From Cereibacter sphaeroides 2.4.1 (GTDB lineage Bacteria; Pseudomonadota; Alphaproteobacteria; Rhodobacterales; Rhodobacteraceae), in contig NC_009007.1 in the NCBI RefSeq assembly GCF_000012905.2, positions 65,018 through 90,931 on the forward strand: 25,914 nucleotides of DNA, in the 5' to 3' direction. Position numbers and translations under genes: made by a program. The notes below the pieces were generated by a model. That model saw only the letters and a program-made list of their open reading frames with translations, was not told the origin of the DNA and ran no database searches. Shown in pieces: positions 7,734-19,621 of the stretch; the first letter of the stretch is position 1; every line of letters begins with the position of its first letter.

Positions 7734-8555
7734 TTATTGGGCCGCCGCCGTGGAGGCGGAAAGCCGATCGAAGGCGGCCGTAAGACGGTCGGCCGCCATC
7801 ATGCCGGGCACCACTTCTCCATCCCGAAACACGAATGCCGGGGTGCCGGAAATCGAGAGCGCCTGGGCGAGGCGTCGGTTGCCGTCAATGATGGACGTGA
7901 TGTCGTCCTGCCGCCCCCGCGCCACGAGGGCCGGATAATCGTAGCCGGCCGCTCCGGCGAGGATCGAAAGCGCGGCCTCGTTGAGACCGCCCTTGTGCGA
8001 CAGGAGCGCGTTGTGAAAGCCAAGGTAGGCCTCGTCGCCGTGCTCCGCGCGGACAGCCAGAGCGAGCCTTGCAGCGGCTTCGGAGGTGGATCCGAGGATC
8101 GGAAACTCTTTCATCACCACCGCCACATCGTTCCGGCCGGACAGGGCTGCAGCGAGCTCCGGCAGCGCGCCTTTGCAGTAGCCGCACTGGTAATCGAAGA
8201 ACTCTACGGCGACGACCGGCGCGCTGGCATTGCCCTTGCGCGCATCGGCTCCTTGAAACAGAGCCGCCGCCTCGGCCTCGACCGCCGCGCGGGCGCCGGC
8301 GGTCTGCTTCTCCTTCTCCTGCCGCTCAAGCAGGGCGAAAACCTCGAGAACTACCTCGGGATTGCTGAGCAGGACGCTGCGGACCTGATCGGCGAACTCC
8401 GGGCCCGGCTCGGATTGCTTTGCCCCCTGCCCCGCAGCGGCAAGTAACGGCATCACCACGCTCCCCGCGGCCATAACGAGCACACCAGCCAGCGCCCCCG
8501 CAATTGATGCGCGCGTCAAAACGCCGCGTCGCTGCACCTTATCGTCACAACTCAT
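7734..8555 (-). CDS. DsbA-family thiol:disulfide oxidoreductase (periplasmic)
   Basis: It has a CxxC active site in the thioredoxin context FFDYQCGYCKGALPEL and a hydrophobic N-terminal signal or anchor. The start is set at 8555 (AAGGAG 6-7 nt upstream) rather than the track start at 8630. Confidence 0.85.
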   Translation of the reverse strand: MSCDDKVQRRGVLTRASIAGALAGVLVMAAGSVVMPLLAAAGQGAKQSEPGPEFADQVRSVLLSNPEVVLEVFALLERQEKEKQTAGARAAVEAEAAALFQGADARKGNASAPVVAVEFFDYQCGYCKGALPELAAALSGRNDVAVVMKEFPILGSTSEAAARLALAVRAEHGDEAYLGFHNALLSHKGGLNEAALSILAGAAGYDYPALVARGRQDDITSIIDGNRRLAQALSISGTPAFVFRDGEVVPGMMAADRLTAAFDRLSASTAAAQ

Positions 8556-8714
8556 AGCCACTCCTTGCAAACGAGATCGGCGGTGTCGTGCAACTGCGCT
8601 GAATGGGGATAACCATCTCGGCGTTGTCACGCACTAACCAATCCGTCTTTGCTCCACATGTGCAAACTCGTTATTGAATAGCGTTATGTTTCAGTTTCAG
8701 CAAAGGGTTTTGAG

Positions 8715-10997
8715 ATGTCGCACCTCCGCAAGGGCCAGCCGACACAGTTCGTCCGCGGCGGCCAGACCACGCAGCACTGGTGGCGCATGGCGGCGCAGGT
8801 GGTCCGCACCTCGCTCTTCGTCGCGCTGGCGGCCTTCACCCTCACCTACACGGCTCTCGTGCTTGCCAATTACGAGCTGCGCTACATGCGCGAGACCTTT
8901 GCGAGCTGGACCGCGCATTACAACGTCCGGCTGGGCCGGCCGGAGAAGATCATTTCTTACGTCGATCACCTCGACCGACGGCTCGAGCGGACGGCAGGAC
9001 AGATCGCGGCTGACCATCGGATGAACGCTCTTGCGGACGAGTATCGCCGCAATGCCTCGCTCTTCGCCTGGTATGCTCTCGTTCCGGCGGCCGCGGCGCT
9101 TCTGATCAGCACCGCCATTTTCGCCTGGGCCGGACAGCGGGTCGGGCAGAACGAACATGTGCGGGGAAGCCGCCTCATAGACCAGCGGGATCTCGCGCGC
9201 TGGTCCATGAGAAAGTGGAAGGCATACCAGAAGCGCTTCGGCCTCGGCCTGAAAAAGGGGCCACGCTACACAATCGCCGGCATCCCGTTCCCTCCGAACG
9301 CCGTGGAGGCGCAGACCGGGATCTTCGGAACGGTCGGGGTGGGCAAGACCAACGCCATCAAGGAGCTGCTGACCACCATCCGGGCACAGAACGGCCGAGC
9401 CATCATCTACGACCGCATGGGTGGCCTCGTCCGCGATTTCTACGATCCGGCCACCGACATTATCATCAATCCCTTCGACGCCCGATCACACATCTGGTCG
9501 CCGTTCGGCGAAGCCAGCACCCCGGAGGCTCTGGCGCAGATCGCCGAGGTCATGATCCCGCAGCGCCCCGGACAGAACGATCCTTTCTGGTCACAGACGG
9601 CGCGGCTGGTCTTCGAATATTCGGCGCGCTCACTCCTTCGCGCCAAGCGACCGACCAACGCAGACCTGCGCCGCGCGATCATGACGATCTCGGCCGAAGA
9701 GCTGGAGAAGCTGCTCGCAGGCACGCCGGGGGCTCATTTCTTCGGCAAGCACGTCGAGAAGACGTCGGCCTCGATCCGCGCAAACATGATTGCGGAGCTG
9801 CGGTTCCTCGAGTTTCTGCGTGACGACGGTGAGCTCTTTTCGGCGCGAGAGTGGGTCAAGTCGGAGCGACCCGGTTTCGTGTTTCTGACCGGCGATGCCG
9901 AACACTCGGCCGCGACCCGCAACATTATCTCCACCATCATCGAGGTATCGGCCAACGCGCTGATGACCTGCGAAGAGAGCCGCGATCCGAAGGTCTGGTT
10001 CTTCCTAGATGAGGTGCCGTCCCTCAACCGCCTGCCCTTCCTGCAATCGAAGCTGGCGGAGATCCGGCAGTTCGGGGGGGCTTTCGTGCTCGGCTACCAG
10101 GTCTTTGCGCAGCTGGAAGACATCTACGGAGAGAAAGGCGCGCAGGCCATCGCCGGCAACCTCAACAACCGCATCGTCTTCAACACGCCGGACGCGCGCA
10201 CGGCCAAGCTCTTTTCCGAAAGCCTCGGGTTCGAGGATGTGGTCGAACAACGGGAAAACCTGAGCTTCGGGGCGCACGAGTCTCGCGATGGCGTGGCCTT
10301 CATGAGCCAGCGCACGGAGCGGCCCATCGTCACCGCCTCTGAGATCCAGGCGCTGCCTCAGTTCGAGGCTCTGATCCGCTTTGCATATGACGCGCCAACT
10401 GCGCGCGTCCGGTTCGAGCCTGTCCAGGTGGAGCCGAAGGCCGAGAAGATCGTGCCCTATCAGGGTGGCGGCTTCGCTCTGGATGCCATGGATCCGCACA
10501 AGGCCCCTGCCCCGGCCCCGGCGGCAGATGAGGCGTCACTCGCCACGCGCTATGCCCCGGAGCTGCTTGGAAAGGTGCAGGAGGAACGGCGCGCACGGTT
10601 CGCGAGCTGGACCCCGGCGCAGCAGATCGCGGCCTTTGACGACTGGTTCGCAAAGGGCCTGCGACCGGACTTCGACGCTGCAGGCTTCTCCTTGCTGGCC
10701 CCTCTCGACGGCGTGCCGCCAGAAACGGCCTGGGACCACTATTACCGACAGCGCGTCCAGGGACACGATGAACCGACTTTCCGCATCACGCCCAACATGA
10801 TGCAGATGGTCACTAACCGCCCCCGCGCCCGGGAGGGTGCGGGTGCGGCGGTGGCCGAGGTGCCTGCCTATGCGGATCTTCGCCGCGCGGCCGAGGAAAA
10901 GATCATTCCCTTCCCGGGTCGCCACGCTGCGCCGCCCCCTGCCCGTCCAGCTGACCCTCTCACTGCGGGAATGGATGAGGAGGGCTCGCTGCTATGA
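8715..10997 (+). CDS. Type IV coupling protein (TraD/TrwB/VirD4-type)
   Basis: It has two N-terminal TM segments, Walker A GTVGVGKTN and Walker B VWFFLDEVPSL. Its stop overlaps the relaxase start as ATGA. Confidence 0.9.
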   Translation: MSHLRKGQPTQFVRGGQTTQHWWRMAAQVVRTSLFVALAAFTLTYTALVLANYELRYMRETFASWTAHYNVRLGRPEKIISYVDHLDRRLERTAGQIAADHRMNALADEYRRNASLFAWYALVPAAAALLISTAIFAWAGQRVGQNEHVRGSRLIDQRDLARWSMRKWKAYQKRFGLGLKKGPRYTIAGIPFPPNAVEAQTGIFGTVGVGKTNAIKELLTTIRAQNGRAIIYDRMGGLVRDFYDPATDIIINPFDARSHIWSPFGEASTPEALAQIAEVMIPQRPGQNDPFWSQTARLVFEYSARSLLRAKRPTNADLRRAIMTISAEELEKLLAGTPGAHFFGKHVEKTSASIRANMIAELRFLEFLRDDGELFSAREWVKSERPGFVFLTGDAEHSAATRNIISTIIEVSANALMTCEESRDPKVWFFLDEVPSLNRLPFLQSKLAEIRQFGGAFVLGYQVFAQLEDIYGEKGAQAIAGNLNNRIVFNTPDARTAKLFSESLGFEDVVEQRENLSFGAHESRDGVAFMSQRTERPIVTASEIQALPQFEALIRFAYDAPTARVRFEPVQVEPKAEKIVPYQGGGFALDAMDPHKAPAPAPAADEASLATRYAPELLGKVQEERRARFASWTPAQQIAAFDDWFAKGLRPDFDAAGFSLLAPLDGVPPETAWDHYYRQRVQGHDEPTFRITPNMMQMVTNRPRAREGAGAAVAEVPAYADLRRAAEEKIIPFPGRHAAPPPARPADPLTAGMDEEGSLL

Positions 10998-13900
10998 TGA
11001 GCGTGAGCAACGTCTCGGCCGGCGCCGCTGCCAGCGGATACTATCAGGCCGAAGGGTATTACGTCGCCGGAAGCCCTGAGGCAGAGGCGGCAGCTTCGTG
11101 GTTCGGCAGTGCGGCTGATGAGCTTGTCGCAATGGGTCAGGAAGAGTTTGCGGGGCGCGTGGACGACGCTGCGTTCTCGGCCATGCTCGACGGTCACGCT
11201 CCGCCGACCCAACGCGATGCCGAAGGCCATTGGAAGGAAGGTCAGACGCTCGGCCGCGTCGTGGACGGGGAGCGGCAGCACCGACCGGGGATCGACCTGA
11301 CCTTCTCCGCCTCCAAGTCGGTGTCGATCATCGGTCTGGTCGCTGGCGATGAGCGCGTGATCGCAGCCCATGACGAGGCGGTGAAGGCCGCCATGAGCTA
11401 CGTCGAAGAGAAGTTCGTCCGGACACGTCGGGAGGTGAACGGCGAGATCGTGGCGGTCCCCGGCAAGATGGTGGCCGGGCTTTTCCGCCATGATACGTCG
11501 CGGGCCCTCGATCCGCAGCTCCATACCCATGCCGTCATACAGAACATGGTCCTCGGCGAGGACGGCAAGTGGACCGCCCTCTCCAACGAGGAAATCTACC
11601 GCAACAAGATGCTGATCGGGGCGATCTACCGCAACGAGTTGGCGCAGAACCTCGAGCGGGCGGGATATGCCGTCGAGCGTGTCGGCCATGACGGCATCAC
11701 CGAGATCAAGGGCGTCCCGCGCGAGCTGATGGATGGCTTCTCGAAGCGCCGCAAGGAGATCGAGGCGGCCCTCGATGAGCGTGGGATCGAGAGGACGGCT
11801 GTAGATAGCGCATTGGCAGCCCTCGCCACCCGCAGGAACAAGCAGAAGGGCATCGACCGGGCAGAGCTGCGTGAAGCGTGGGAGAAGGAAGCGCAGTCCA
11901 TGGGCGTCTCCCTCGATCAGCTTCGCGAGCTCCGGCAGACAGCCACTCTGACGGCAGCCACGCGCCTGCCCGGCGTGACGCGAGACGGGATCGCTGCGCC
12001 CTCCCCTGCTGATCGCGCCGCGGCCGCCGTCGAGTTCGCGATTGCGCATGTGAGTGAACGCAATGCCGTCTACTCCGGCTCCGAGCTGGTCCGCGTGGCC
12101 CTGAGCCGAGCCAAGGATGTGGGGATCCGGCAGATCGAGGGCGCCATCGCGACCAAGGAAGAGACGGGCCGTCTGGTGCCGGTCCATGTCCATGCCTGGA
12201 ACGAGAAGCGCTCGCCCGATGCCATGACCCGCGGGGAGGGCTTCTCCGGGACGCTGAAGGCGATGGGCACCGCGCCGTATCAGAACGACCCTAGAAACCG
12301 CGACTCCTTCTTCGTGACCATCGAGACGCGGAACGGGGAGCAGACGGTCTGGGGTGCCGGCTTGCAGGCGGCGCTCGAACGGCAGGAAGCCAGTCCGGGC
12401 AGCCTTGTCCATCTGACGGTGCAGGGCCAGAAGCCCGTGACGGTGATCGGCGCCGATGGCAAACCGGTGTCCGCCCATCGCAATCTCTGGACGGCGGAAG
12501 TCATCGAACGCGCCTCGGAGCGGTCGGATCGCTCCAACGGCCCTCAGCCGCAGCGGGAGACGATCAGGCTCTATTCGGACGATGCCACCCTTGCCCTCGA
12601 GCGCATGGTGCTGGGCGAGTATCGGGCAGCCCGGCGTCAAGGCGGAGTGGAGTTGCCAGCTCGCCTGAGAGTCACTGGCGGGATCAAGATGAGCGGAGAA
12701 GCTCTTCTGCGTGACCGCCTTGACAAGACAACTCTGACGGAGGGCCAGAAGGAAGCGGTCGCACTCGGTCTCACAGGCAGAGGCCGGTTCGTCGGCGTGC
12801 AGGGGTATGCCGGCACGGGCAAAACGCACATGGTGGAAACCCTGCGCCGCTATGCCGAGCGGGCGGGCTTCACCGTGGAAGGCGCGGCACCGACGAACAA
12901 GGCCGCCGCAGAGCTCGCCTCGGCAGTGCCCGCGGCCGGCACCGTCGCCCGCTTCCTGCTCGCGGATGCTCCGGGCGACAAGAAGCGCTCCATCCTCGTG
13001 GTCGACGAGGCTGGGATGATCTCCACGCGCGACATGCACGCCCTGATGACCAAGGCAAACGAGCTCCGATACGCTCGGGTTATCCTCGTAGGTGACGTGA
13101 AGCAGCTCGACCCGGTGAGCGCGGGCTCGCCCTTCGCGCAGCTCCAGAAGGCGGGAATGCCGACCGCCATCATGGCCGACATTCAGCGCCAGAGAAACGA
13201 AGATGCCCGGAAAGCCGTGCTCCATGCCATCCGCGGCGAGGTCCGTGCTGCCTTCTCGCGGATCGAGGATCTTCGCACGCCAGAGAAGAACCAGAGCTTT
13301 ACCGGCGAGGTTGCCCGGGCGTGGCTCGGATTGCACAGCTCGGTGCGCGAGCGGACCGGGATTGTGGTTCTGACCAACCGCGTCCGGGGGGAAGTTAATG
13401 CCGCGATTCGCGACGAGTTGAAACGGGAACATCGGCTCGGCGCTCAGGATGTGACGGTCGCCAGTCTCACGCCGCTCTCGCTCACCCGCGCCGAAGCGCG
13501 CGAGGCGGCCAGCTACAAGGCTGGTGACGTGGTGATCTCGGTGCGCAGCGTGGAGGGGTTGGAGCGGGACAAACTCTACCGGGTTACATCCACCCTGCCC
13601 TATCAGAACAGCATCACCTTGCGTCCGGAGGGAGGCGGCGCCGAGGTCGCGCTGACACTCGGACATGGGTCGAAAGCTGCGGGATCGCTCGCCGCATTCG
13701 AGGTGGGCAAGCGCGAATTTGCGGCCGGCGATGAGGTCAAATTCGCGATCACCGACAAGGATTGCGGAGCGATTAACGGTGCGCGCGGCCGGATCACAAA
13801 GGTGACGGAAGCCCAGATCGACGTCACGCTGCACGGCGGGCGGAAGCTCTCCGTGCCCACGGATTCACTCGCCGCCCGTGGCCTAGACCATGCCTATGCG

Positions 13901-14329
13901 GCCACCGCACACGACTTTCAGGGCGCCACAGTGGACAGGATCATCGTGGGCATGACCCCCGATGAGCAGCTCACCAGCCAGAAGTCCTTCTACGTCAATA
14001 TCTCCCGCGCGCGGGACCATGTGACGCTTGTGACGACCGATCCCGGGAAGCTCGCTGATCGGATTCAGCGTGAGACCGGCGAACGTCCGGCCGCGCTCGA
14101 CGCCTACGCGCAGCGGCTCTCGGACGAGCGGAACGCGGCCGGAAAGGTGCCGCAGAATGAGCCCCCCTCCCCTGCCCGCGACCCTGACCGGGTGCCGCAA
14201 ATCCTGCGCGAGCAGGCGCAGAAACTGCGGCAGGCGGAGCCCCCGCAGGAGCGCACTGATCGGCAGGTGGAGCAATTCCTGGCGCAGTTCGAGGAGAAAC
14301 AGAAGGTGAAGGAAGGACCGATCCGGTGA
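10994..14329 (+). CDS. MOBF-family relaxase-helicase (TrwC/TraI-like)
   Basis: The N-terminal TrwC relaxase domain carries the histidine triad context HDTSRALDPQLHTHAVIQN. The central and C-terminal part is a RecD-like helicase (GYAGTGKT, ILVVDEAGM, VILVGDVKQL, AATAHDFQGATVD). Confidence 0.92.
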   Translation: MMSVSNVSAGAAASGYYQAEGYYVAGSPEAEAAASWFGSAADELVAMGQEEFAGRVDDAAFSAMLDGHAPPTQRDAEGHWKEGQTLGRVVDGERQHRPGIDLTFSASKSVSIIGLVAGDERVIAAHDEAVKAAMSYVEEKFVRTRREVNGEIVAVPGKMVAGLFRHDTSRALDPQLHTHAVIQNMVLGEDGKWTALSNEEIYRNKMLIGAIYRNELAQNLERAGYAVERVGHDGITEIKGVPRELMDGFSKRRKEIEAALDERGIERTAVDSALAALATRRNKQKGIDRAELREAWEKEAQSMGVSLDQLRELRQTATLTAATRLPGVTRDGIAAPSPADRAAAAVEFAIAHVSERNAVYSGSELVRVALSRAKDVGIRQIEGAIATKEETGRLVPVHVHAWNEKRSPDAMTRGEGFSGTLKAMGTAPYQNDPRNRDSFFVTIETRNGEQTVWGAGLQAALERQEASPGSLVHLTVQGQKPVTVIGADGKPVSAHRNLWTAEVIERASERSDRSNGPQPQRETIRLYSDDATLALERMVLGEYRAARRQGGVELPARLRVTGGIKMSGEALLRDRLDKTTLTEGQKEAVALGLTGRGRFVGVQGYAGTGKTHMVETLRRYAERAGFTVEGAAPTNKAAAELASAVPAAGTVARFLLADAPGDKKRSILVVDEAGMISTRDMHALMTKANELRYARVILVGDVKQLDPVSAGSPFAQLQKAGMPTAIMADIQRQRNEDARKAVLHAIRGEVRAAFSRIEDLRTPEKNQSFTGEVARAWLGLHSSVRERTGIVVLTNRVRGEVNAAIRDELKREHRLGAQDVTVASLTPLSLTRAEAREAASYKAGDVVISVRSVEGLERDKLYRVTSTLPYQNSITLRPEGGGAEVALTLGHGSKAAGSLAAFEVGKREFAAGDEVKFAITDKDCGAINGARGRITKVTEAQIDVTLHGGRKLSVPTDSLAARGLDHAYAATAHDFQGATVDRIIVGMTPDEQLTSQKSFYVNISRARDHVTLVTTDPGKLADRIQRETGERPAALDAYAQRLSDERNAAGKVPQNEPPSPARDPDRVPQILREQAQKLRQAEPPQERTDRQVEQFLAQFEEKQKVKEGPIR

Positions 14330-14958
14330 GGAAGGACAACATCAACGACCGCTACAGGTTCGTGCTCGGCCCCCGCGCCAAGGCTCTGACGGAGACGCAC
14401 TGTCCGCCCGGTGAGCTTCCCGGCAGCGATCATCTGGAGGCAGGGATCGAGGCGCTGCAGCAAGCCCTTGAGGTCGAGCGCGGGGTGCTGCGGCGCCTGC
14501 AGGACGAGTTCGATCGACTGGATGGTCGGATGGTCAACCTCGTCTCTGCGCACAACCATGGTCTCCGGGGGCTGATGATGATGACCGGACAGATGGTTCG
14601 CGAGCTCAACGTCATCCGGAAGATCCTGATCGTCTCGGCGGCATCGAACAATGAGCAGGCCGAACGGCTCTACGACAAGGCGGTGCCGGCGATCATGGAG
14701 ATGCGCGCCACGCTCGCTGTCTGGCGGGAGCGCGAAGGTCTCGAGGTGCCCGAGTTCTCCTTCGAGCAGGAGGAGCGGATCCTCCAGCAGCTCGTCCAGA
14801 ACCCGGCCGAGCACCGCCATCCCGATCATGGCGAGGAGCCGGAGACGCTTGGCGAGGCGCTTGCGGAGCAGGTGCAGCGGATCGGCGAAGCCTTCGATCC
14901 GAGCCTCACGGATGAGCGCCACGAACGTGAAATGGAGATGGGTGACGATGAGCGGTAA
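14326..14958 (+). CDS. Hypothetical acidic, probably coiled-coil protein, translationally coupled to the relaxase
   Basis: The GTG start overlaps the relaxase stop (GTGA). GGAAGGA lies about 8 nt upstream. No family was recognised. Confidence 0.5.
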   Translation: MRKDNINDRYRFVLGPRAKALTETHCPPGELPGSDHLEAGIEALQQALEVERGVLRRLQDEFDRLDGRMVNLVSAHNHGLRGLMMMTGQMVRELNVIRKILIVSAASNNEQAERLYDKAVPAIMEMRATLAVWREREGLEVPEFSFEQEERILQQLVQNPAEHRHPDHGEEPETLGEALAEQVQRIGEAFDPSLTDERHEREMEMGDDER

Positions 14959-14992
14959 GGCCGATCCGAGCGCTCAGAAGGCCGAAAACTAC

Positions 14993-15032
14993 CGTGGCAC
15001 GTCGTGCCACGCGCGTGGCACACTGTGCCACG
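14993..15032. promoter_or_regulatory. Two adjacent perfect 19-bp palindromes (CGTGGCAC-n3-GTGCCACG) separated by 2 bp
   Basis: Read directly: cgtggcac gtc gtgccacg / cg / cgtggcac act gtgccacg. They start 35 bp after the stop of the relaxase operon. They are candidate protein-binding sites, oriT inverted repeats or an operator. Confidence 0.5.
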
Positions 15033-15070
15033 GCCCCGAAAAACAACGTAAATACAGCGCGTTGGGAGCC

Positions 15071-15093
15071 GGGGGCAAATTACGCCCCCTTTT
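15071..15093 (+). terminator. Rho-independent terminator of the coupling protein-relaxase operon
   Basis: GGGGGC-aaattac-GCCCCC stem-loop followed by TTTT. Confidence 0.6.
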
Positions 15094-15130
15094 AAGACGA
15101 AAAGCCTTTATTTATAAAGGCTTGAAGGCA

Positions 15131-15967
15131 ATGGGCAGCTTGCTGCGTCAGGTGTGTCCTCTTCAGACCGGAGAGGCAGCCGTAAGGCTGCCGATCCGAG
15201 GCCTCCTCGCCCTCGCCGTCGCAGGCGGATGCCTGCTCCTCGGCCCCTGCCCCGTCTCGGCCGAGGCTTGGAAAGCCTCGGCCGAGACCACCTGGGCGAG
15301 CGGGTCCTCCTTCAGTCCGCCCGCGGATCGCCGCCAGCCTGGCCCCGGTTCATCCTTCCTCGAAGCGCAGGCCAGCTCATCCTTCGCGCTCGTGCCGAGG
15401 GCCGCCCGCCAGAAGAAAAGCCGGGCCTTCGTCATGCCGACCGACCGCGATGAGTTCGTGCGAATCCGTGCGCTGGTTCATCACGCCGAAAGCGGCGCGG
15501 CCGGCTATGACGATTACCACCGAAGCGCACCCGTGCCCCCGCCCCGCGCTCCCTCGACCATGACGCTCGACCAGATCCGGCAATGGATCGCCGCTACGCC
15601 GGGGCAGCAACATGCCATCGGCCGCTATCAGATCATCCCCTCCACCTTGGAAAGCCTGGCCTCGCGCGCAACCCTCCCGGGCTCCACGCTCTTCAGCGCT
15701 CCGGTTCAGGACAGCATGGCCAGCATCCTCATTCTCGACGCTGGCTATGTGGAGCTGAAAAATGGCGCGATCACGCTCGACAGGTTCATGGACAACCTCG
15801 CCCGGATCTGGGCTGGCTTCCCCATGGCGAGCGGGAAGTCCGCCTATGAGGGCGTGGCCGGCAACAGAGCCACGATCAGCCGCAAATTCTACGCAGAGCG
15901 GATGGCCGAAATCTTCCCCGTAGAGGCCCGTAGAGACCTTCGGGCTACCGAGGTGGCGGCAAAGTAG
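15131..15967 (+). CDS. Secreted lambda-lysozyme-like muramidase/lytic transglycosylase (GH104-type domain)
   Basis: The C-terminal domain aligns by eye with phage lambda R (HHAESG vs AWSEGT, GRYQ, F..P.QD, IWAGFP vs IWASLP). The N-terminus is signal-like (LLALAVAGGCLLLG). The part of the track ORF upstream of 15131 overlaps the previous gene and is rejected. Confidence 0.7.
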   Translation: MGSLLRQVCPLQTGEAAVRLPIRGLLALAVAGGCLLLGPCPVSAEAWKASAETTWASGSSFSPPADRRQPGPGSSFLEAQASSSFALVPRAARQKKSRAFVMPTDRDEFVRIRALVHHAESGAAGYDDYHRSAPVPPPRAPSTMTLDQIRQWIAATPGQQHAIGRYQIIPSTLESLASRATLPGSTLFSAPVQDSMASILILDAGYVELKNGAITLDRFMDNLARIWAGFPMASGKSAYEGVAGNRATISRKFYAERMAEIFPVEARRDLRATEVAAK

Positions 15968-16060
15968 CGTGAGGGCCCCAGACGGGGCTCTCCGTGAGCC
16001 TGCGGTTAGGTGCCGAGTTGGTTCCTCCGGCACCATCAGCTAGCGCCGCTCCATCCCATC

Positions 16061-16516
16061 GCGACCGCACCGCCGCTTCGCCGCACCGCCGCACATCCGC
16101 ATGGCCGCCTCACCGCACCGCCGCACGTCCGCATGGCCGCCTCACCGCACCGCCGCACGTCCGCATGTCCGCATCACCGCACCGCCGCACGTCCGTATGG
16201 CCGCCTCACCGCACCGCCGTATGTCCGCATGGCCGCCTCACCGCACCGCCGCATGTCCGCATGGCCGCCTCACCGCACCGCCGCACATCCGCATGGCCGC
16301 CTCACCGCACCGCCGCACATCCGCATGGCCGCCTCACCGCACCGCCGCAGGTCCGCATGGCCGCCTCACCGCACCGCCGCAGGTCCGCATGGCCGCCTCA
16401 CCGCACCGCCGCACGTCCGCATGGCCGCTTAATCGCATGTCCGCACCGACGCATGTCCGCTTCGCCGCTTTGCCGCATGTCCGCATCTACGCCTTGACGC
16501 ATGTCCGCATCGCCGC
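16061..16516. repeat. 57 consecutive in-phase octamers NNNNCCGC with a 32-bp higher-order unit (11 copies, 16099-16450); candidate partition centromere and par operator
   Basis: GCATGGCCGC (variants GCATGTCCGC at 16163 and GTATGGCCGC at 16195) recurs at 16099, 16131, ... 16419 with exact 32-bp spacing. The octamer register is unbroken for 456 bp. The array ends 38 bp before the parA start. Confidence 0.85.
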
Positions 16517-16553
16517 CATAACGGATCGACAATCGAGCAGCCTGGAGACGGCA

Positions 16554-17285
16554 ATGAAAGTGATAACCGCTTACAGTCACAAAGGCGGAACCGGGAAGAC
16601 CACGGCGTTGATGATGCTGGCGTCCGCCATAGAAGCCCGAGGGCAGTCCGCACTATTGGTAGACTGCGACCCTCACCAGTCCTTCAAGGCTTACGAGACC
16701 CACAGCAAGAGCACGTCCCCGGCTATCTGGTCCGACAGGATGGACGTGATCTATCTGCACTATGAGGCGACGAAGGTCGCTGTCCTTGAACAGACGCTTC
16801 TCGACGCTGATGAGGGGGGCAGGTTCGACTACTGCCTCTTGAACCTCGCCGGGGTAGATCATCCCTTCAACCGCCACGTCCTGCGCTATGCCGAGCTGAC
16901 GCTCCTGCCGTTCGCGCCTGCGGCGCTCGACATGATGGAGCTGCCTGGGGCGCTTGATGTCCTCAGACAGCTCGGTGACCAAGGCGAGGTAGGGCAGGCA
17001 CGCGTTCTTTTGACAAAGATGCGCTCAAAGATGACCAGCGCTCAGACCGGCTACATTGACGCCGTGTTGGCCGGTTTCCCTGTGATGAAGACCCAGATCC
17101 GCGAAACGGCTGTCTTGGGCGACATTGTGATGCGAGGCCTTTTAGGAAAGGCCATCGCCGCGTGGGAGCCGGAGGCGAGCGGCCTGCAAAAGATGGAAAT
17201 CGCCCGTCTCCGCGAGGCGCTGGAAGAGTGTCAGGCACTGCTGGCGGAGGTCGATTCAATCATTGAGCTTGGAGAAGCGGCATGA
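16554..17285 (+). CDS. parA: ParA-family partition ATPase (no N-terminal HTH, type Ib-like)
   Basis: MKVITAYSHKGGTGKTT is a deviant Walker A motif. GGAGA lies 5 nt upstream of the ATG at 16554. The 151 codons upstream in the track ORF are translation of the repeat array. Confidence 0.9.
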   Translation: MKVITAYSHKGGTGKTTALMMLASAIEARGQSALLVDCDPHQSFKAYETHSKSTSPAIWSDRMDVIYLHYEATKVAVLEQTLLDADEGGRFDYCLLNLAGVDHPFNRHVLRYAELTLLPFAPAALDMMELPGALDVLRQLGDQGEVGQARVLLTKMRSKMTSAQTGYIDAVLAGFPVMKTQIRETAVLGDIVMRGLLGKAIAAWEPEASGLQKMEIARLREALEECQALLAEVDSIIELGEAA

Positions 17286-17842
17286 AGAACAAAGGCCTTC
17301 TTACTAGGGCAGGGGGCTCGCCTTTATCCTTCCGCAAGGATCCGGTGCCAACGGATATGCCCAATCGCATAGCGGCTGACGCCTCGGCCGCTCCTGTCGT
17401 TGCGGCAGATCAGCCGGAGATTGCTCGGGGCGAGACAAATCCTGTCGGAAAAGCACCTCGCGCCACCCCAACGCCACGGCGGCGGCAATCGCCATCGTCG
17501 GAGGACAAGGCCCCTCGCTACACGCTCCGCCTGACCGTGGAGGCGAAAGTCCTCGAGGAGCTCGATCGCCTTCTCGGCGACATGGACGACAAGAGTCGCA
17601 TCGCTGCGAAAAAGGCTCTGGTTCGCACATTCGCTTCCCAGGTGGCCGAAAGGACGCCGAAGAAGGCCGAATATGTGCCCACGGACCCCGTAGTCTATCG
17701 CATCGACCTGAAAATCCCGGACAGTCTGAGGGCGGCCATCTTGGCCGTTGAAGGCGCCAATCCCCTCGAACCGGCGGGCACCGCACTGTCCCGTAACCTG
17801 GCGCCCGTCTTCGCTGCTTTCGTCCGCAAGCTGGGAAAGTAG
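17282..17842 (+). CDS. Partition partner protein (ParG/ParB-like), putative ribbon-helix-helix centromere binder with a disordered N-terminus
   Basis: ATGA overlap with the parA stop. The segment PRYTLRLTVEAKVLEELDRLLG has a beta-strand then helix pattern typical of RHH proteins. The assignment comes from position and pattern only. Confidence 0.6.
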   Translation: MKNKGLLTRAGGSPLSFRKDPVPTDMPNRIAADASAAPVVAADQPEIARGETNPVGKAPRATPTPRRRQSPSSEDKAPRYTLRLTVEAKVLEELDRLLGDMDDKSRIAAKKALVRTFASQVAERTPKKAEYVPTDPVVYRIDLKIPDSLRAAILAVEGANPLEPAGTALSRNLAPVFAAFVRKLGK

Positions 17843-17942
17843 ATAACCGCAAATGAAGCGACGGGGCCAAGGTAGCCTCACCTCGGCAGCCCCGTCACAT
17901 CTGATCCAGGCGTCCCACGTTTGTCTCTATGGCGCATCGGGT

Positions 17943-17975: not shown

Positions 17976-18165
17976 GCCCCTCGGCGAGAGCGGGGGGGAG
18001 GGGTCAAGGGGCCGCGCGGAGCCGCCCGGAGCCACGCGCAGCAAAGCGAGCATGGCGAGGACGGCGAGCACGGCGGGCGCTTGCGCCCCTTGCCCTTGAC
18101 CCCGATGGGGGCGGAGCCCCCCTGACGGCGCGCGTCTGCGCGCCATGCTCCTCACCACGGCGAAG

Positions 18166-19621
18166 CCACGCTGGCCGCCCACAATCTCGCCTGCGATCCC
18201 GGAGGGGTGACGGCGCGGCAGGTGCCGACGTGCCGGAAGGGCCGAAGGCCCCTAGGCTCGTCGGTGCCTGACGCGGCGGCGCGCCGGAGGGGAGGGCTCG
18301 TGCCACGCCGGCCGCCCGCAGATCTCGCCCGCAATCCCGGAGGGGTGACGGCGCGGCAGGTGCCGACGTGCCGGAAGGGCCGAAGGCCCCTAGGCTCGTC
18401 GGTGCCTGACGGGACGGCGCGCCGGAGGGGAGGTCTCGAGGCACGCCGGCCGCCCGCAGATCTCGGCCGCGATCCCGGAGGGGTGACGGCGCGGCAGGTG
18501 CCGACGTGCCGGGAGGGCCGAAGGCCCCTAGGCTCGTCGGTGCCTGACGCGGCGGCGCGCCGGAGGGGAGGTCTCGAGGCACGCCGGCCGCCCGCAGATC
18601 TCGCCCGCGATCCCGGAGGGGTGACGGCGCGGCAGGTGCCGACGTGCCGGGAGGGCCGAAGGCCCCTAGGCTCGTCGGTGCCTGACGCGGCGGCGCGCCG
18701 GAGGGGAGGTCTCGAGGCACGCCGGCCGCCCGCAGATCTCGCCCGCAATCCCGGAGGGGTGACGGCGCGGCAGGTGCCGACGTGCCGGAAGGGCCGAAGG
18801 CCCCTAGGCTCGTCGGTGCCTGACGGGACGGCGCGCCGGAGGGGAGGGCTCGTGCCACGCCGGCCGCCCGCAGATCTCGGCCGCGATCCCGGAGGGGTGA
18901 CGGCGCGGCAGGTGCCGACGTGCCGGGAGGGCCGAAGGCCCCTAGGCTCGTCGGTGCCTGACGCGGCGGCGCGCCGGAGGGGAGGGCTCGTGCCACGCCG
19001 GCCGCCCGCAGATCTCGCCCGCGATCCCGGAGGGGTGACGGCGCGGCAGGTGCCGACGTGCCGGAAGGGCCGAAGGCCCCTAGGCTCGTCGGTGCCTGAC
19101 GGGACGGCGCGCCGGAGGGGAGGGCTCGTGCCACGCCGGCCGCCCGCAGATCTCGGCCGCGATCCCGGAGGGGTGACGGCGCGGCAGGTGCCGACGTGCC
19201 GGGAGGGCCGAAGGCCCCTAGGCTCGTCGGTGCCTGACGCGGCGGCGCGCCGGAGGGGAGGTCTCGAGGCACGCCGGCCGCCCGCAGATCTCGGCCGCAA
19301 TCCCGGAGGGGTGACGGCGCGGCAGGTGCCGACGTGCCGGAAGGGCCGAAGGCCCCTAGGCTCGTCGGTGCCTGACGGGACGGCGCGCCGGAGGGGAGGG
19401 CTCGTGCCACGCCGGCCGCCCGCAGATCTCGGCCGCGATCCCGGAGGGGTGACGGCGCGGCAGGTGCCGACGTGCCGGGAGGGCCGAAGGCCCCTAGGCT
19501 CGTCGGTGCCTGACGCGGCGGCGCGCCGGAGGGGAGGGCTCGTGCCACGCCGGCCGCCCGCAGATCTCGGCCGCGATCCCGAAGGGGTGACGGCGCGGCA
19601 GGTGCCGACGTGCCGGAAGGC
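18166..19621. repeat. Tandem array of a 138-bp unit, about 10.5 copies, non-coding
   Basis: The phase marker CCCGGAGGGG occurs at 18198, 18336, 18474 ... 19440, with a variant CCCGAAGGGG at 19578. Spacing is exactly 138 bp with no indels. A degenerate remnant extends back to about 18119. Confidence 0.95.

Follow-up and report, generated by a model that had tools for sequence, protein, structure and literature searches.

A stretch of plasmid DNA from Cereibacter sphaeroides 2.4.1 (NC_009007.1, positions 65 018–90 931 of the forward strand; 25 914 nucleotides, referred to below as the window) raises the question of what function is served by a long run of phased octamers in front of a parA gene. 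The array (16061–16516) is followed by parA (16554–17285) and by a gene for a 186-residue protein (17282–17842), here called the partner; all three features were read on the forward strand. A preliminary description made from the window had proposed the array as a candidate centromere. From the array itself, from its relatives in other plasmids and from the proteins encoded beside it, we consider it likely that the array is a cis site, acting as centromere and operator for a plasmid partition cassette that is self-contained and resembles type Ib. The array statistics, its non-coding nature, the recurring architecture with clade-specific boxes, the predicted fold of the partner and the exchange of the cassette were established directly.

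Composition and register of the array

The array spans 456 bp and consists of exactly 57 octamers in a single unbroken register. All boxes share one orientation, and no phased GCGG was found on the opposite strand of the region. Of these octamers, 51 are of the type NNNNCCGC; the remaining six are one-base variants (three ACGC, two CCGT and one TCGC), and the central CG is invariant in all 57. The unbroken register and the set of variants are as previously described. An A directly follows the box in 42 of 56 cases, and the position beyond is occupied by a pyrimidine in 54 of 56; CCGCA(Y) followed by two or three variable bases is a better description of the core than a strict tetramer. In 1000 dinucleotide-preserving shuffles of the array region, the best phase contained 4.8 ± 1.1 CCGC (maximum 10), compared with an equivalent observed count of 50. 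No other phased CCGC array is present in the window or in the whole 153 kb plasmid, and the array is identical across six independent assemblies of strain 2.4.1 derivatives. An Rfam scan of the window returned no family.

Analysis of the array with Tandem Repeats Finder gave a period of 32 bp, 13.2 copies and 90% matches. By eye, ten full 32 bp units and one decayed unit were identified at 16093–16444, such that ten of the eleven units claimed earlier stand as full copies and the last does not. The supra-unit core, defined by Tandem Repeats Finder and the register, lies at 16093–16412 (forward strand) and comprises ten near-identical units ACnTCCGC ATGGCCGC CTCACCGC ACCGCCGC. The parA-proximal end (16435–16508, forward strand) is degenerate and retains four exact GCATGTCCGC boxes at 16435, 16451, 16475 and 16499; their spacings of 16, 24 and 24 bp agree with the decay that had been noted, and this end is kept in plasmid pORIO3 of C. 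azotoformans. The array does abut parA, with a gap of 37 bases to the ATG at 16554 rather than the 38 first given.

The orthologous array of C. azotoformans contains about five units of a different 32-mer. Because that system is 96–98% identical and has only ∼20 boxes, the extreme length of the array in the window is taken to reflect a recent amplification of the 32 bp unit. Unequal crossing-over probably also just happens to proceed by this unit.

Exchange of the cassette between sister backbones

Plasmids of derivatives of Cereibacter (Rhodobacter) sphaeroides 2.4.1, namely a 153 kb molecule and the 43.5 kb plasmid pDx, match the window at 100% identity. Positions 8001–16004 are 99.6% identical to a second copy of the transfer backbone (L008) in the 153 kb plasmid. 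This identity ends 57 bp before the array, and similarity returns at 17909, 67 bp past the partner stop codon. The exchangeable cassette (16005–17908, forward strand) comprises the array, parA and the partner gene, with flanks that are 99.6% (left) and ∼95% (right) identical to the paralogous module. Within these limits alignment to the paralogue was restricted to the initial 480 bp of parA, at 69%; the paralogous cassette encodes a ParA that is 62% identical and a partner that is 28% identical, and its box is CCGGCA. The relaxases, the type IV coupling proteins (T4CPs) and the first of two hypothetical proteins (hyp1) of the two backbones are 98–99.6% identical. The only other diverged block found was repC (85%). 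The same pair of cassettes is held by the related plasmids pORIO2 and pORIO3 in one strain of C. azotoformans.

For related plasmids to co-reside, their replication and partition determinants must differ; their transfer genes need not. The pattern in which the cassette and repC are swapped fits an incompatibility or partition determinant, and we regard the divergence of these two blocks as the strongest argument that the array, parA and the partner gene form one functional maintenance unit. The swap of the cassette on an identical relaxase also argues against a role that needs contact with the relaxase.

Homologous loci

Loci were collected with the ParA alignment, and 13 with ParA homologues (55–98% identical) were read. 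The upstream region could be judged in 12; L015 was left out, as its contig starts 8 bp upstream of parA. Homologues of ParA at 45–74% identity were found across Rhodobacterales, in Cereibacter, Paracoccus, Pseudogemmobacter, Roseinatronobacter, Phaeovulum, Celeribacter, Sinirhodobacter and metagenomes. An array of 8 or 9 bp direct repeats ending 40–120 bp before parA was present in 11 of the 12 judgeable loci, the exception (L016) having a few degenerate boxes only. Where upstream sequence was available (11 loci), the order T4CP, TrwC relaxase, hyp1, hyp2, gap, parA, partner was the same in every case.

The boxes vary between loci. Those of pORIO3 (∼20 octamers) are of the type in the window. 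L005 has ∼51 copies of CCGCCAnnC with a 9 bp period, L006 has 13 copies of GTGCCGCC, L019 has 16 of CGAACCGC and L020 has ∼17 of GGTAGACCC. The period is again 9 bp in L013 (ACGCTGGAA) and L014 (TACGCTATC). ACGCA boxes in a 26 bp unit were found in L017, CACA-type octamers in L012 and TCC(A/G)A octamers in L007, and the paralogue in pORIO2 and L008 has ∼93 CCGGCA boxes with a 75 bp unit. ParA keeps 55–75% identity while the partners drop to 23–43%. Partners with the β-strand RFYF occur with CCCGG(C/T)A boxes, those with RYTL[VI]LKV occur with CCCGCCAGA and those with KYSL occur with perfect 8-mers. Thus, on this comparison, the box sequence differs by clade and appears to track the partner.

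ParA and the coding potential of the array

The parA gene encodes a deviant-Walker-A ATPase of 243 residues with KGGTGKT at residues 10–16 and no N-terminal helix–turn–helix (HTH), which bears out the earlier description of a short ParA of this kind; a ribosome-binding site (GGAGA, 16544–16548, forward strand) lies 5 nt before the ATG. Its nearest solved structures are TP228 ParF/ParA (E = 1e-7). Pfam matched VirC1 (2e-21; 76.8 bits against a gathering threshold of 24) and CbiA. NCBIfam matched VirC1 and ParA_partition (7e-19), both far below the equivalog cutoffs; the VirC1 score of 75.9 bits against a cutoff of 313 bits does not indicate orthology to VirC1. The length of 243 residues, the Walker motif and ParF as the nearest structure are as expected of a type Ib ParA (size criterion from PMC3235114).

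The array could in principle encode a P/R/H-rich N-terminal extension of ParA or belong to one of several overlapping open reading frames (ORFs). All three forward frames are open across it; RefSeq, using the Prokaryotic Genome Annotation Pipeline (PGAP), lists a 330-residue ParA with its start inside the array (extra N-terminus 16293–16553; L001 17394–18386), and a 298-residue version is present in the protein collection. However, each frame translates to the same P/R/A/H-rich 32-residue repeat because 32 is not divisible by 3, and the dismissal of the His/Pro/Arg-rich ORFs as artefacts was sound. The C. azotoformans ParA, which is 98% identical, is annotated with 243 residues; the homologues all have 241–246 residues and start with M(K/R)VI(T/A)AYSHKGG after a Shine–Dalgarno sequence, and the arrays upstream of them are unrelated in sequence, with periods of 8 or 9 bp. 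The long RefSeq ParA is almost certainly an over-extension of a protein of 243 residues that starts at 16554. Judged from these alignments the array is non-coding, and we give a coding function next to no credence.

Promoter-like element

A promoter-like element at 16494–16522 (forward strand) was read by eye and by comparison. It consists of TTGACG (16494–16499), 17 nt and CATAAC (16517–16522). Its spacer is formed by the last two boxes of the array, which suggests that these boxes may act as an operator. The element is identical in pORIO3. In nine of the 13 homologous loci a TTGAC −35-like hexamer is found within the last repeats, 51–63 bp before the start codon, and in those nine a plausible −10 hexamer follows 17 bp beyond it. 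The placing of a repeat array next to the operon, overlapping its putative promoter, is the layout of a type Ib centromere, and the homologues share it.

Predicted structure of the partner

The start codon of the partner gene overlaps the parA stop codon (ATGA, 17282–17285), an arrangement of translational coupling. The protein has an N-terminal MKNKGLLTR peptide, a disordered linker of ∼75 residues and a C-terminal domain (residues 79–185). In the family alignment the MKNKGLLT(R) peptide is almost invariant, the linker is variable and of low complexity, and the C-terminal half is conserved. Structure prediction with AlphaFold2 from a single sequence gave a predicted local distance difference test score (pLDDT) of 51, and a fold search with that model was uninformative. 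The model calculated with a 27-sequence alignment was used instead; its pLDDT is >93 for residues 79–185. The predicted secondary structure is β79–87, α88–98, α103–123, β136–144, α147–157, α165–185. The partner is thus predicted to hold two ribbon–helix–helix (RHH) halves in one chain, i.e. to be a single-chain tandem RHH protein; the RHH fold is one that recognizes short boxes in tandem. The RHH-like character noted earlier was recovered in the model, as two β–α–α motifs rather than as one segment.

The best Foldseek match was F TraY (PDB entry 9f0y, chain E; probability 0.99, TM-score 0.50), followed by VirC2 (PDB entry 2rh3; probability 0.97, TM-score 0.44, E = 0.011). An RHH profile of NikR matched weakly (E = 0.27). 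Alignment of the two RHH halves using hhalign was in register but weak (E = 0.0019, probability 14.5%), which is no more than suggestive of an internal duplication. Both weak matches agree with the predicted tandem RHH.

Sequence searches place the partner in a small family. At E < 1e-3, 31 representatives were found in 1.8 billion proteins. None of the 27 family members searched against Pfam matched a family, with ParG, VirC2 and the RHH families all below threshold, and NCBIfam returned no family for the partner. A k-mer indexed search returned only the protein itself. Matches by tblastn to PLSDB (72 556 plasmids) were confined to Cereibacter; Ti (tumour-inducing) plasmids are to be expected in that collection.

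Comparison with known systems

In function the cassette comes nearest to TP228 parFGH, whereas in fold the partner comes nearest to VirC2 and TraY. In TP228, 20 degenerate ACTC boxes with 4 bp spacers lie upstream of parFG, and at parH/OF one ParG dimer binds per ACTC box and 4 bp spacer, i.e. per 8 bp unit (PMC3130281). The same work confirms what the preliminary description had stated, namely that ParG is an RHH protein that binds 4 bp boxes separated by 4 bp spacers upstream of parF. The cassette resembles parFGH in its short HTH-less Walker ATPase (with ParF as the nearest solved relative), in its downstream partner of RHH fold with a flexible N-terminal tail, and in its boxes of 8 bp period, mostly direct repeats, which lie upstream of the operon and run into its putative promoter (PMC3130281). 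It differs in that ParG is a homodimer, whereas here both RHH halves lie in one chain of 186 residues with no sequence similarity to ParG. The sites differ too. TP228 has ACTC boxes with AT-rich spacers, 20 in number (∼160 bp), compared with 57 CCGCA(Y) boxes (456 bp) with GC-rich spacers and a 32 bp unit; the geometry is analogous, GC-rich and longer, as had been stated. The conserved core of 5–6 nt is longer than a tetramer, and some related loci have a 9 bp period. ParG has a length of 76 residues. MetJ at met-boxes also shows 8 bp spacing.

The VirC1/VirC2 pair of Ti plasmids likewise combines a ParA-like ATPase with a protein of ∼200 residues that has a C-terminal single-chain RHH, encoded beside relaxase genes. 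We take VirC2 to be a single-chain RHH protein, in keeping with the single-chain alignment of the partner to PDB entry 2rh3. The partner has no detectable sequence homology to VirC2, ParA scores under the VirC1 equivalog threshold, and the cassette behaves like an exchangeable module of incompatibility type. Overdrive is a single short element, unlike the 57-box array. VirC1 has its cis binding site close to the position of the nick (PMC4949242).

F TraY has a complete RHH dimer within one monomer and lines up on DNA in a train of three (PMC12117103). It is like the partner in being a monomeric single-chain RHH on adjacent direct repeats, and it is the top structural match; it differs in having no ParA partner and no long N-terminal tail, in its three sites next to nic and in its relaxosome role.

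In pSM19035 δ/ω and other type Ib systems (pTAR, pB171, pMF1) an RHH-type or small ParB acts on contiguous short direct repeats that overlap the promoter. Here the differences are that those proteins are homodimers and that the repeat numbers are far smaller. The ω repeats are 7 bp heptads. The small ParB of type Ib systems is both a centromere-binding protein and a repressor, and has 46–131 residues (PMC3235114).

R388 is a MOBF plasmid in which an operon with a ParA-like ATPase (StbA/StbB) and direct-repeat sites (stbDR) lie by the transfer region, and its Stb system links segregation and conjugation (PMC4949242). StbA differs from the partner in having no homology to it. It belongs to the HTH proteins, its gene precedes that of the ATPase, and the repeats it uses are 9-mers arranged in two sets of five.

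Alternative explanations

Several observations weigh against a partition cassette of type Ib character. With 186 residues (181–209 in the family) and a single-chain fold, the partner departs from the small homodimeric centromere-binding protein of type Ib systems, although its position and translational coupling fit. The Foldseek E-values are modest (0.008–0.011) and the TM-scores of 0.44–0.50 are normalized to the target; the top folds, TraY and VirC2, belong to relaxosome accessory proteins rather than to centromere-binding proteins. The co-variation of box and partner could in part be simple co-inheritance. A scan of 15900–16650 for consensus promoters and terminators found nothing, so that the parA promoter is proposed and not called; the element described above was missed because of the C at position 6 of its −10 hexamer. 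The 153 kb plasmid also carries a repABC, and the cassette need not be its only segregation system. Finally, VirC1 is the best Pfam and NCBIfam model for ParA and aligns over its full length, and the constant placing of the cassette behind T4CP, TrwC and two hypothetical genes keeps a DNA-transfer role live as an alternative or an addition.

Such a role would be that of a VirC1/VirC2–overdrive-like module, in which the ATPase and the tandem RHH protein bind the array as an enhancer near the origin of transfer (oriT) and help to assemble or place the relaxosome at the type IV secretion system, either in place of segregating the plasmid or besides it. Along with the VirC1 model, the fold matches and the synteny just mentioned, it can draw on the genes for ArdC, SSB and DUF932 downstream, on a candidate oriT-like twin palindrome with an AT-rich tract ∼1 kb upstream, and on the links between partition and conjugation documented for VirC1, R388 StbAB and R1 ParMR (PMC4949242). 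What speaks against it is that the whole cassette is swapped while the relaxase, T4CP and hyp1 stay 98–99.6% identical: co-evolution with the relaxosome would be expected of a factor that has to contact it, and incompatibility pressure explains the swap better. In addition, ParA reaches only 76 of the 313 bits of the VirC1 equivalog cutoff, no homologue of the partner matches Pfam VirC2, the PLSDB search found Cereibacter only, and the operon has its own promoter-like element embedded in the repeats, as type Ib par loci do. We regard transfer as unlikely to be the main function of the module; it may be a second one.

A further explanation concerns the number of boxes that matter and not their identity. 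Only the promoter-proximal boxes would be functional, as an autoregulatory operator, and the core of 32 bp units would be a neutral minisatellite expansion. The units are ∼90% or more identical, and hence young, and the near-identical C. azotoformans system has ∼20 boxes compared with 57, with relatives ranging from ∼10 to ∼93. Yet arrays of 13–93 boxes are the rule in the family and extend far upstream of the promoter, beyond the needs of an operator, and removing boxes from the TP228 site lowers its activity as a centromere (PMC3130281). We consider an operator-only array improbable, although it may hold in part, given the ∼20 boxes of the orthologue.

Plasmid context and other repeats

Plasmid typing classified the plasmid as conjugative, MOBF and MPF_F (F-type). 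The gene order in the window is T4CP (8715–10997), TrwC relaxase (10994–14329), two hypothetical genes, the array, parA, the partner gene, an array of 138 bp repeats, DUF932 and a solitary repC, with ArdC, SSB and DUF932 as leading-region genes downstream of the cassette. The 43.5 kb pDx carries the cassette and has no other annotated par system. The 153 kb 'plasmid a' (NZ_CP015289.1; L001, L008–L010) contains two near-identical F-type transfer regions and T4CP–relaxase blocks, two par cassettes, two solitary repC genes (85% identical) and one repABC. This content suggests that two sister plasmids have joined in a cointegrate, and pDx would be one of the two on its own.

Immediately downstream of the cassette, a 138 bp tandem repeat occurs in 10.6 copies with 96% identity (18165–19620). 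Its period is a multiple of 3, and it contains long ORFs on both strands that are left unannotated by RefSeq. Plasmid pORIO3 has one copy and pORIO2 has 3.5; the paralogous module has 5.5, and there the repeats sit between the box array and parA. As both copy number (1 to 10.6) and position vary, this repeat is not a conserved part of the module and is therefore unlikely to be the real centromere.

Two adjacent palindromes, both GTGGCAC-n3-GTGCCAC, followed by an AT-rich tract in this plasmid of 64% GC, were noted at 14993–15120, ∼1 kb upstream of the array; they fall within the pair of hypothetical genes that follow the relaxase, or between the two. Twin palindromes of other sequence occupy the equivalent place in L005, L012 and L014. 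The twin palindrome may be an operator or the oriT. When nic sequences of the R388 and F types were searched for, the outcome was nothing or chance-level matches.

Further box-like repeats were seen outside the cassettes. In pORIO3 (L002, 9552–9654) a second, shorter CCGC-type octamer array lies ∼300 bp past the 3′ end of the DUF932 gene, and in pORIO2 (L003, 8895–8945) a CCGC-type remnant of ∼6 boxes lies in the same place, although the cassette of that plasmid uses CCGGCA. No second CCGC site like that of pORIO3 was found in the window, where the 138 bp repeats fill the region. In Pseudogemmobacter hezensis (L006, 1839–2005) the TrwC gene contains an 8/24 bp repeat, CGCCAGAC CGCCAGCC CGCCAAAA, within its 3′ end; these boxes resemble the CCCGCCAGA boxes of other clades and not the GTGCCGCC array of L006 itself. 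The metagenomic or draft contigs L013 (1–176), L015 (1–8) and L020 (1–215) begin in or at the array, and such arrays appear regularly to break short-read assemblies.

Proposed mechanism and implications

For the partition cassette we infer binding, stoichiometry, stimulation of the ATPase, repression and segregation as follows. The 186-residue partner would bind each CCGCA(Y) box through a two-stranded β-ribbon, with one monomer per box. The 8 bp period would turn each successive monomer by ∼270°, and four boxes (32 bp) would return to the same face of the DNA; the 32 bp unit would keep helical phase because four boxes correspond to about three helical turns. Up to ∼57 monomers could then coat the array as a helical train, from which the MKNKGLLTR peptides, on their flexible linkers, would contact nucleoid-bound ParA–ATP and stimulate its ATPase activity. 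This stimulation would drive plasmid separation as in TP228 ParF/ParG. As the −35 and −10 hexamers of the putative parA promoter flank the final boxes, the same binding would autorepress the operon.

Direct-repeat centromeres upstream of a short parA are well known, and the array alone is an element of the expected kind. What is new is the undescribed, Pfam-less partner family, the unusually long arrays (57 to ∼93 boxes), and the unit-wise exchange of cassettes between near-identical co-resident backbones. No description of the array–parA–partner module was found in the searchable literature, which is not proof of absence. In practical terms, the start of the RefSeq ParA is corrected and the breaks of assemblies of these plasmids at the array are explained.

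The predicted single-chain tandem RHH would be a fixed, asymmetric reader for unidirectional boxes of 8–9 bp, and the exchanged cassettes offer a natural system for the evolution of partition specificity and incompatibility. The VirC2/TraY fold and the constant adjacency of the relaxase make the suspected evolutionary link between partition and conjugation testable. A bolder reading, which we think rather unlikely, is that the cassette family is an evolutionary and functional bridge from type Ib partition to VirC1/VirC2, in which a ParF-like ATPase and a single-chain RHH protein would coat the very long array, both segregating the plasmid and delivering the adjacent oriT and relaxosome to the F-type secretion system. 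If this were true, a covalently fused RHH dimer would here be seen for the first time in a centromere-binding protein, and the cassette would be a tractable model for the recruitment of partition machinery to conjugation.

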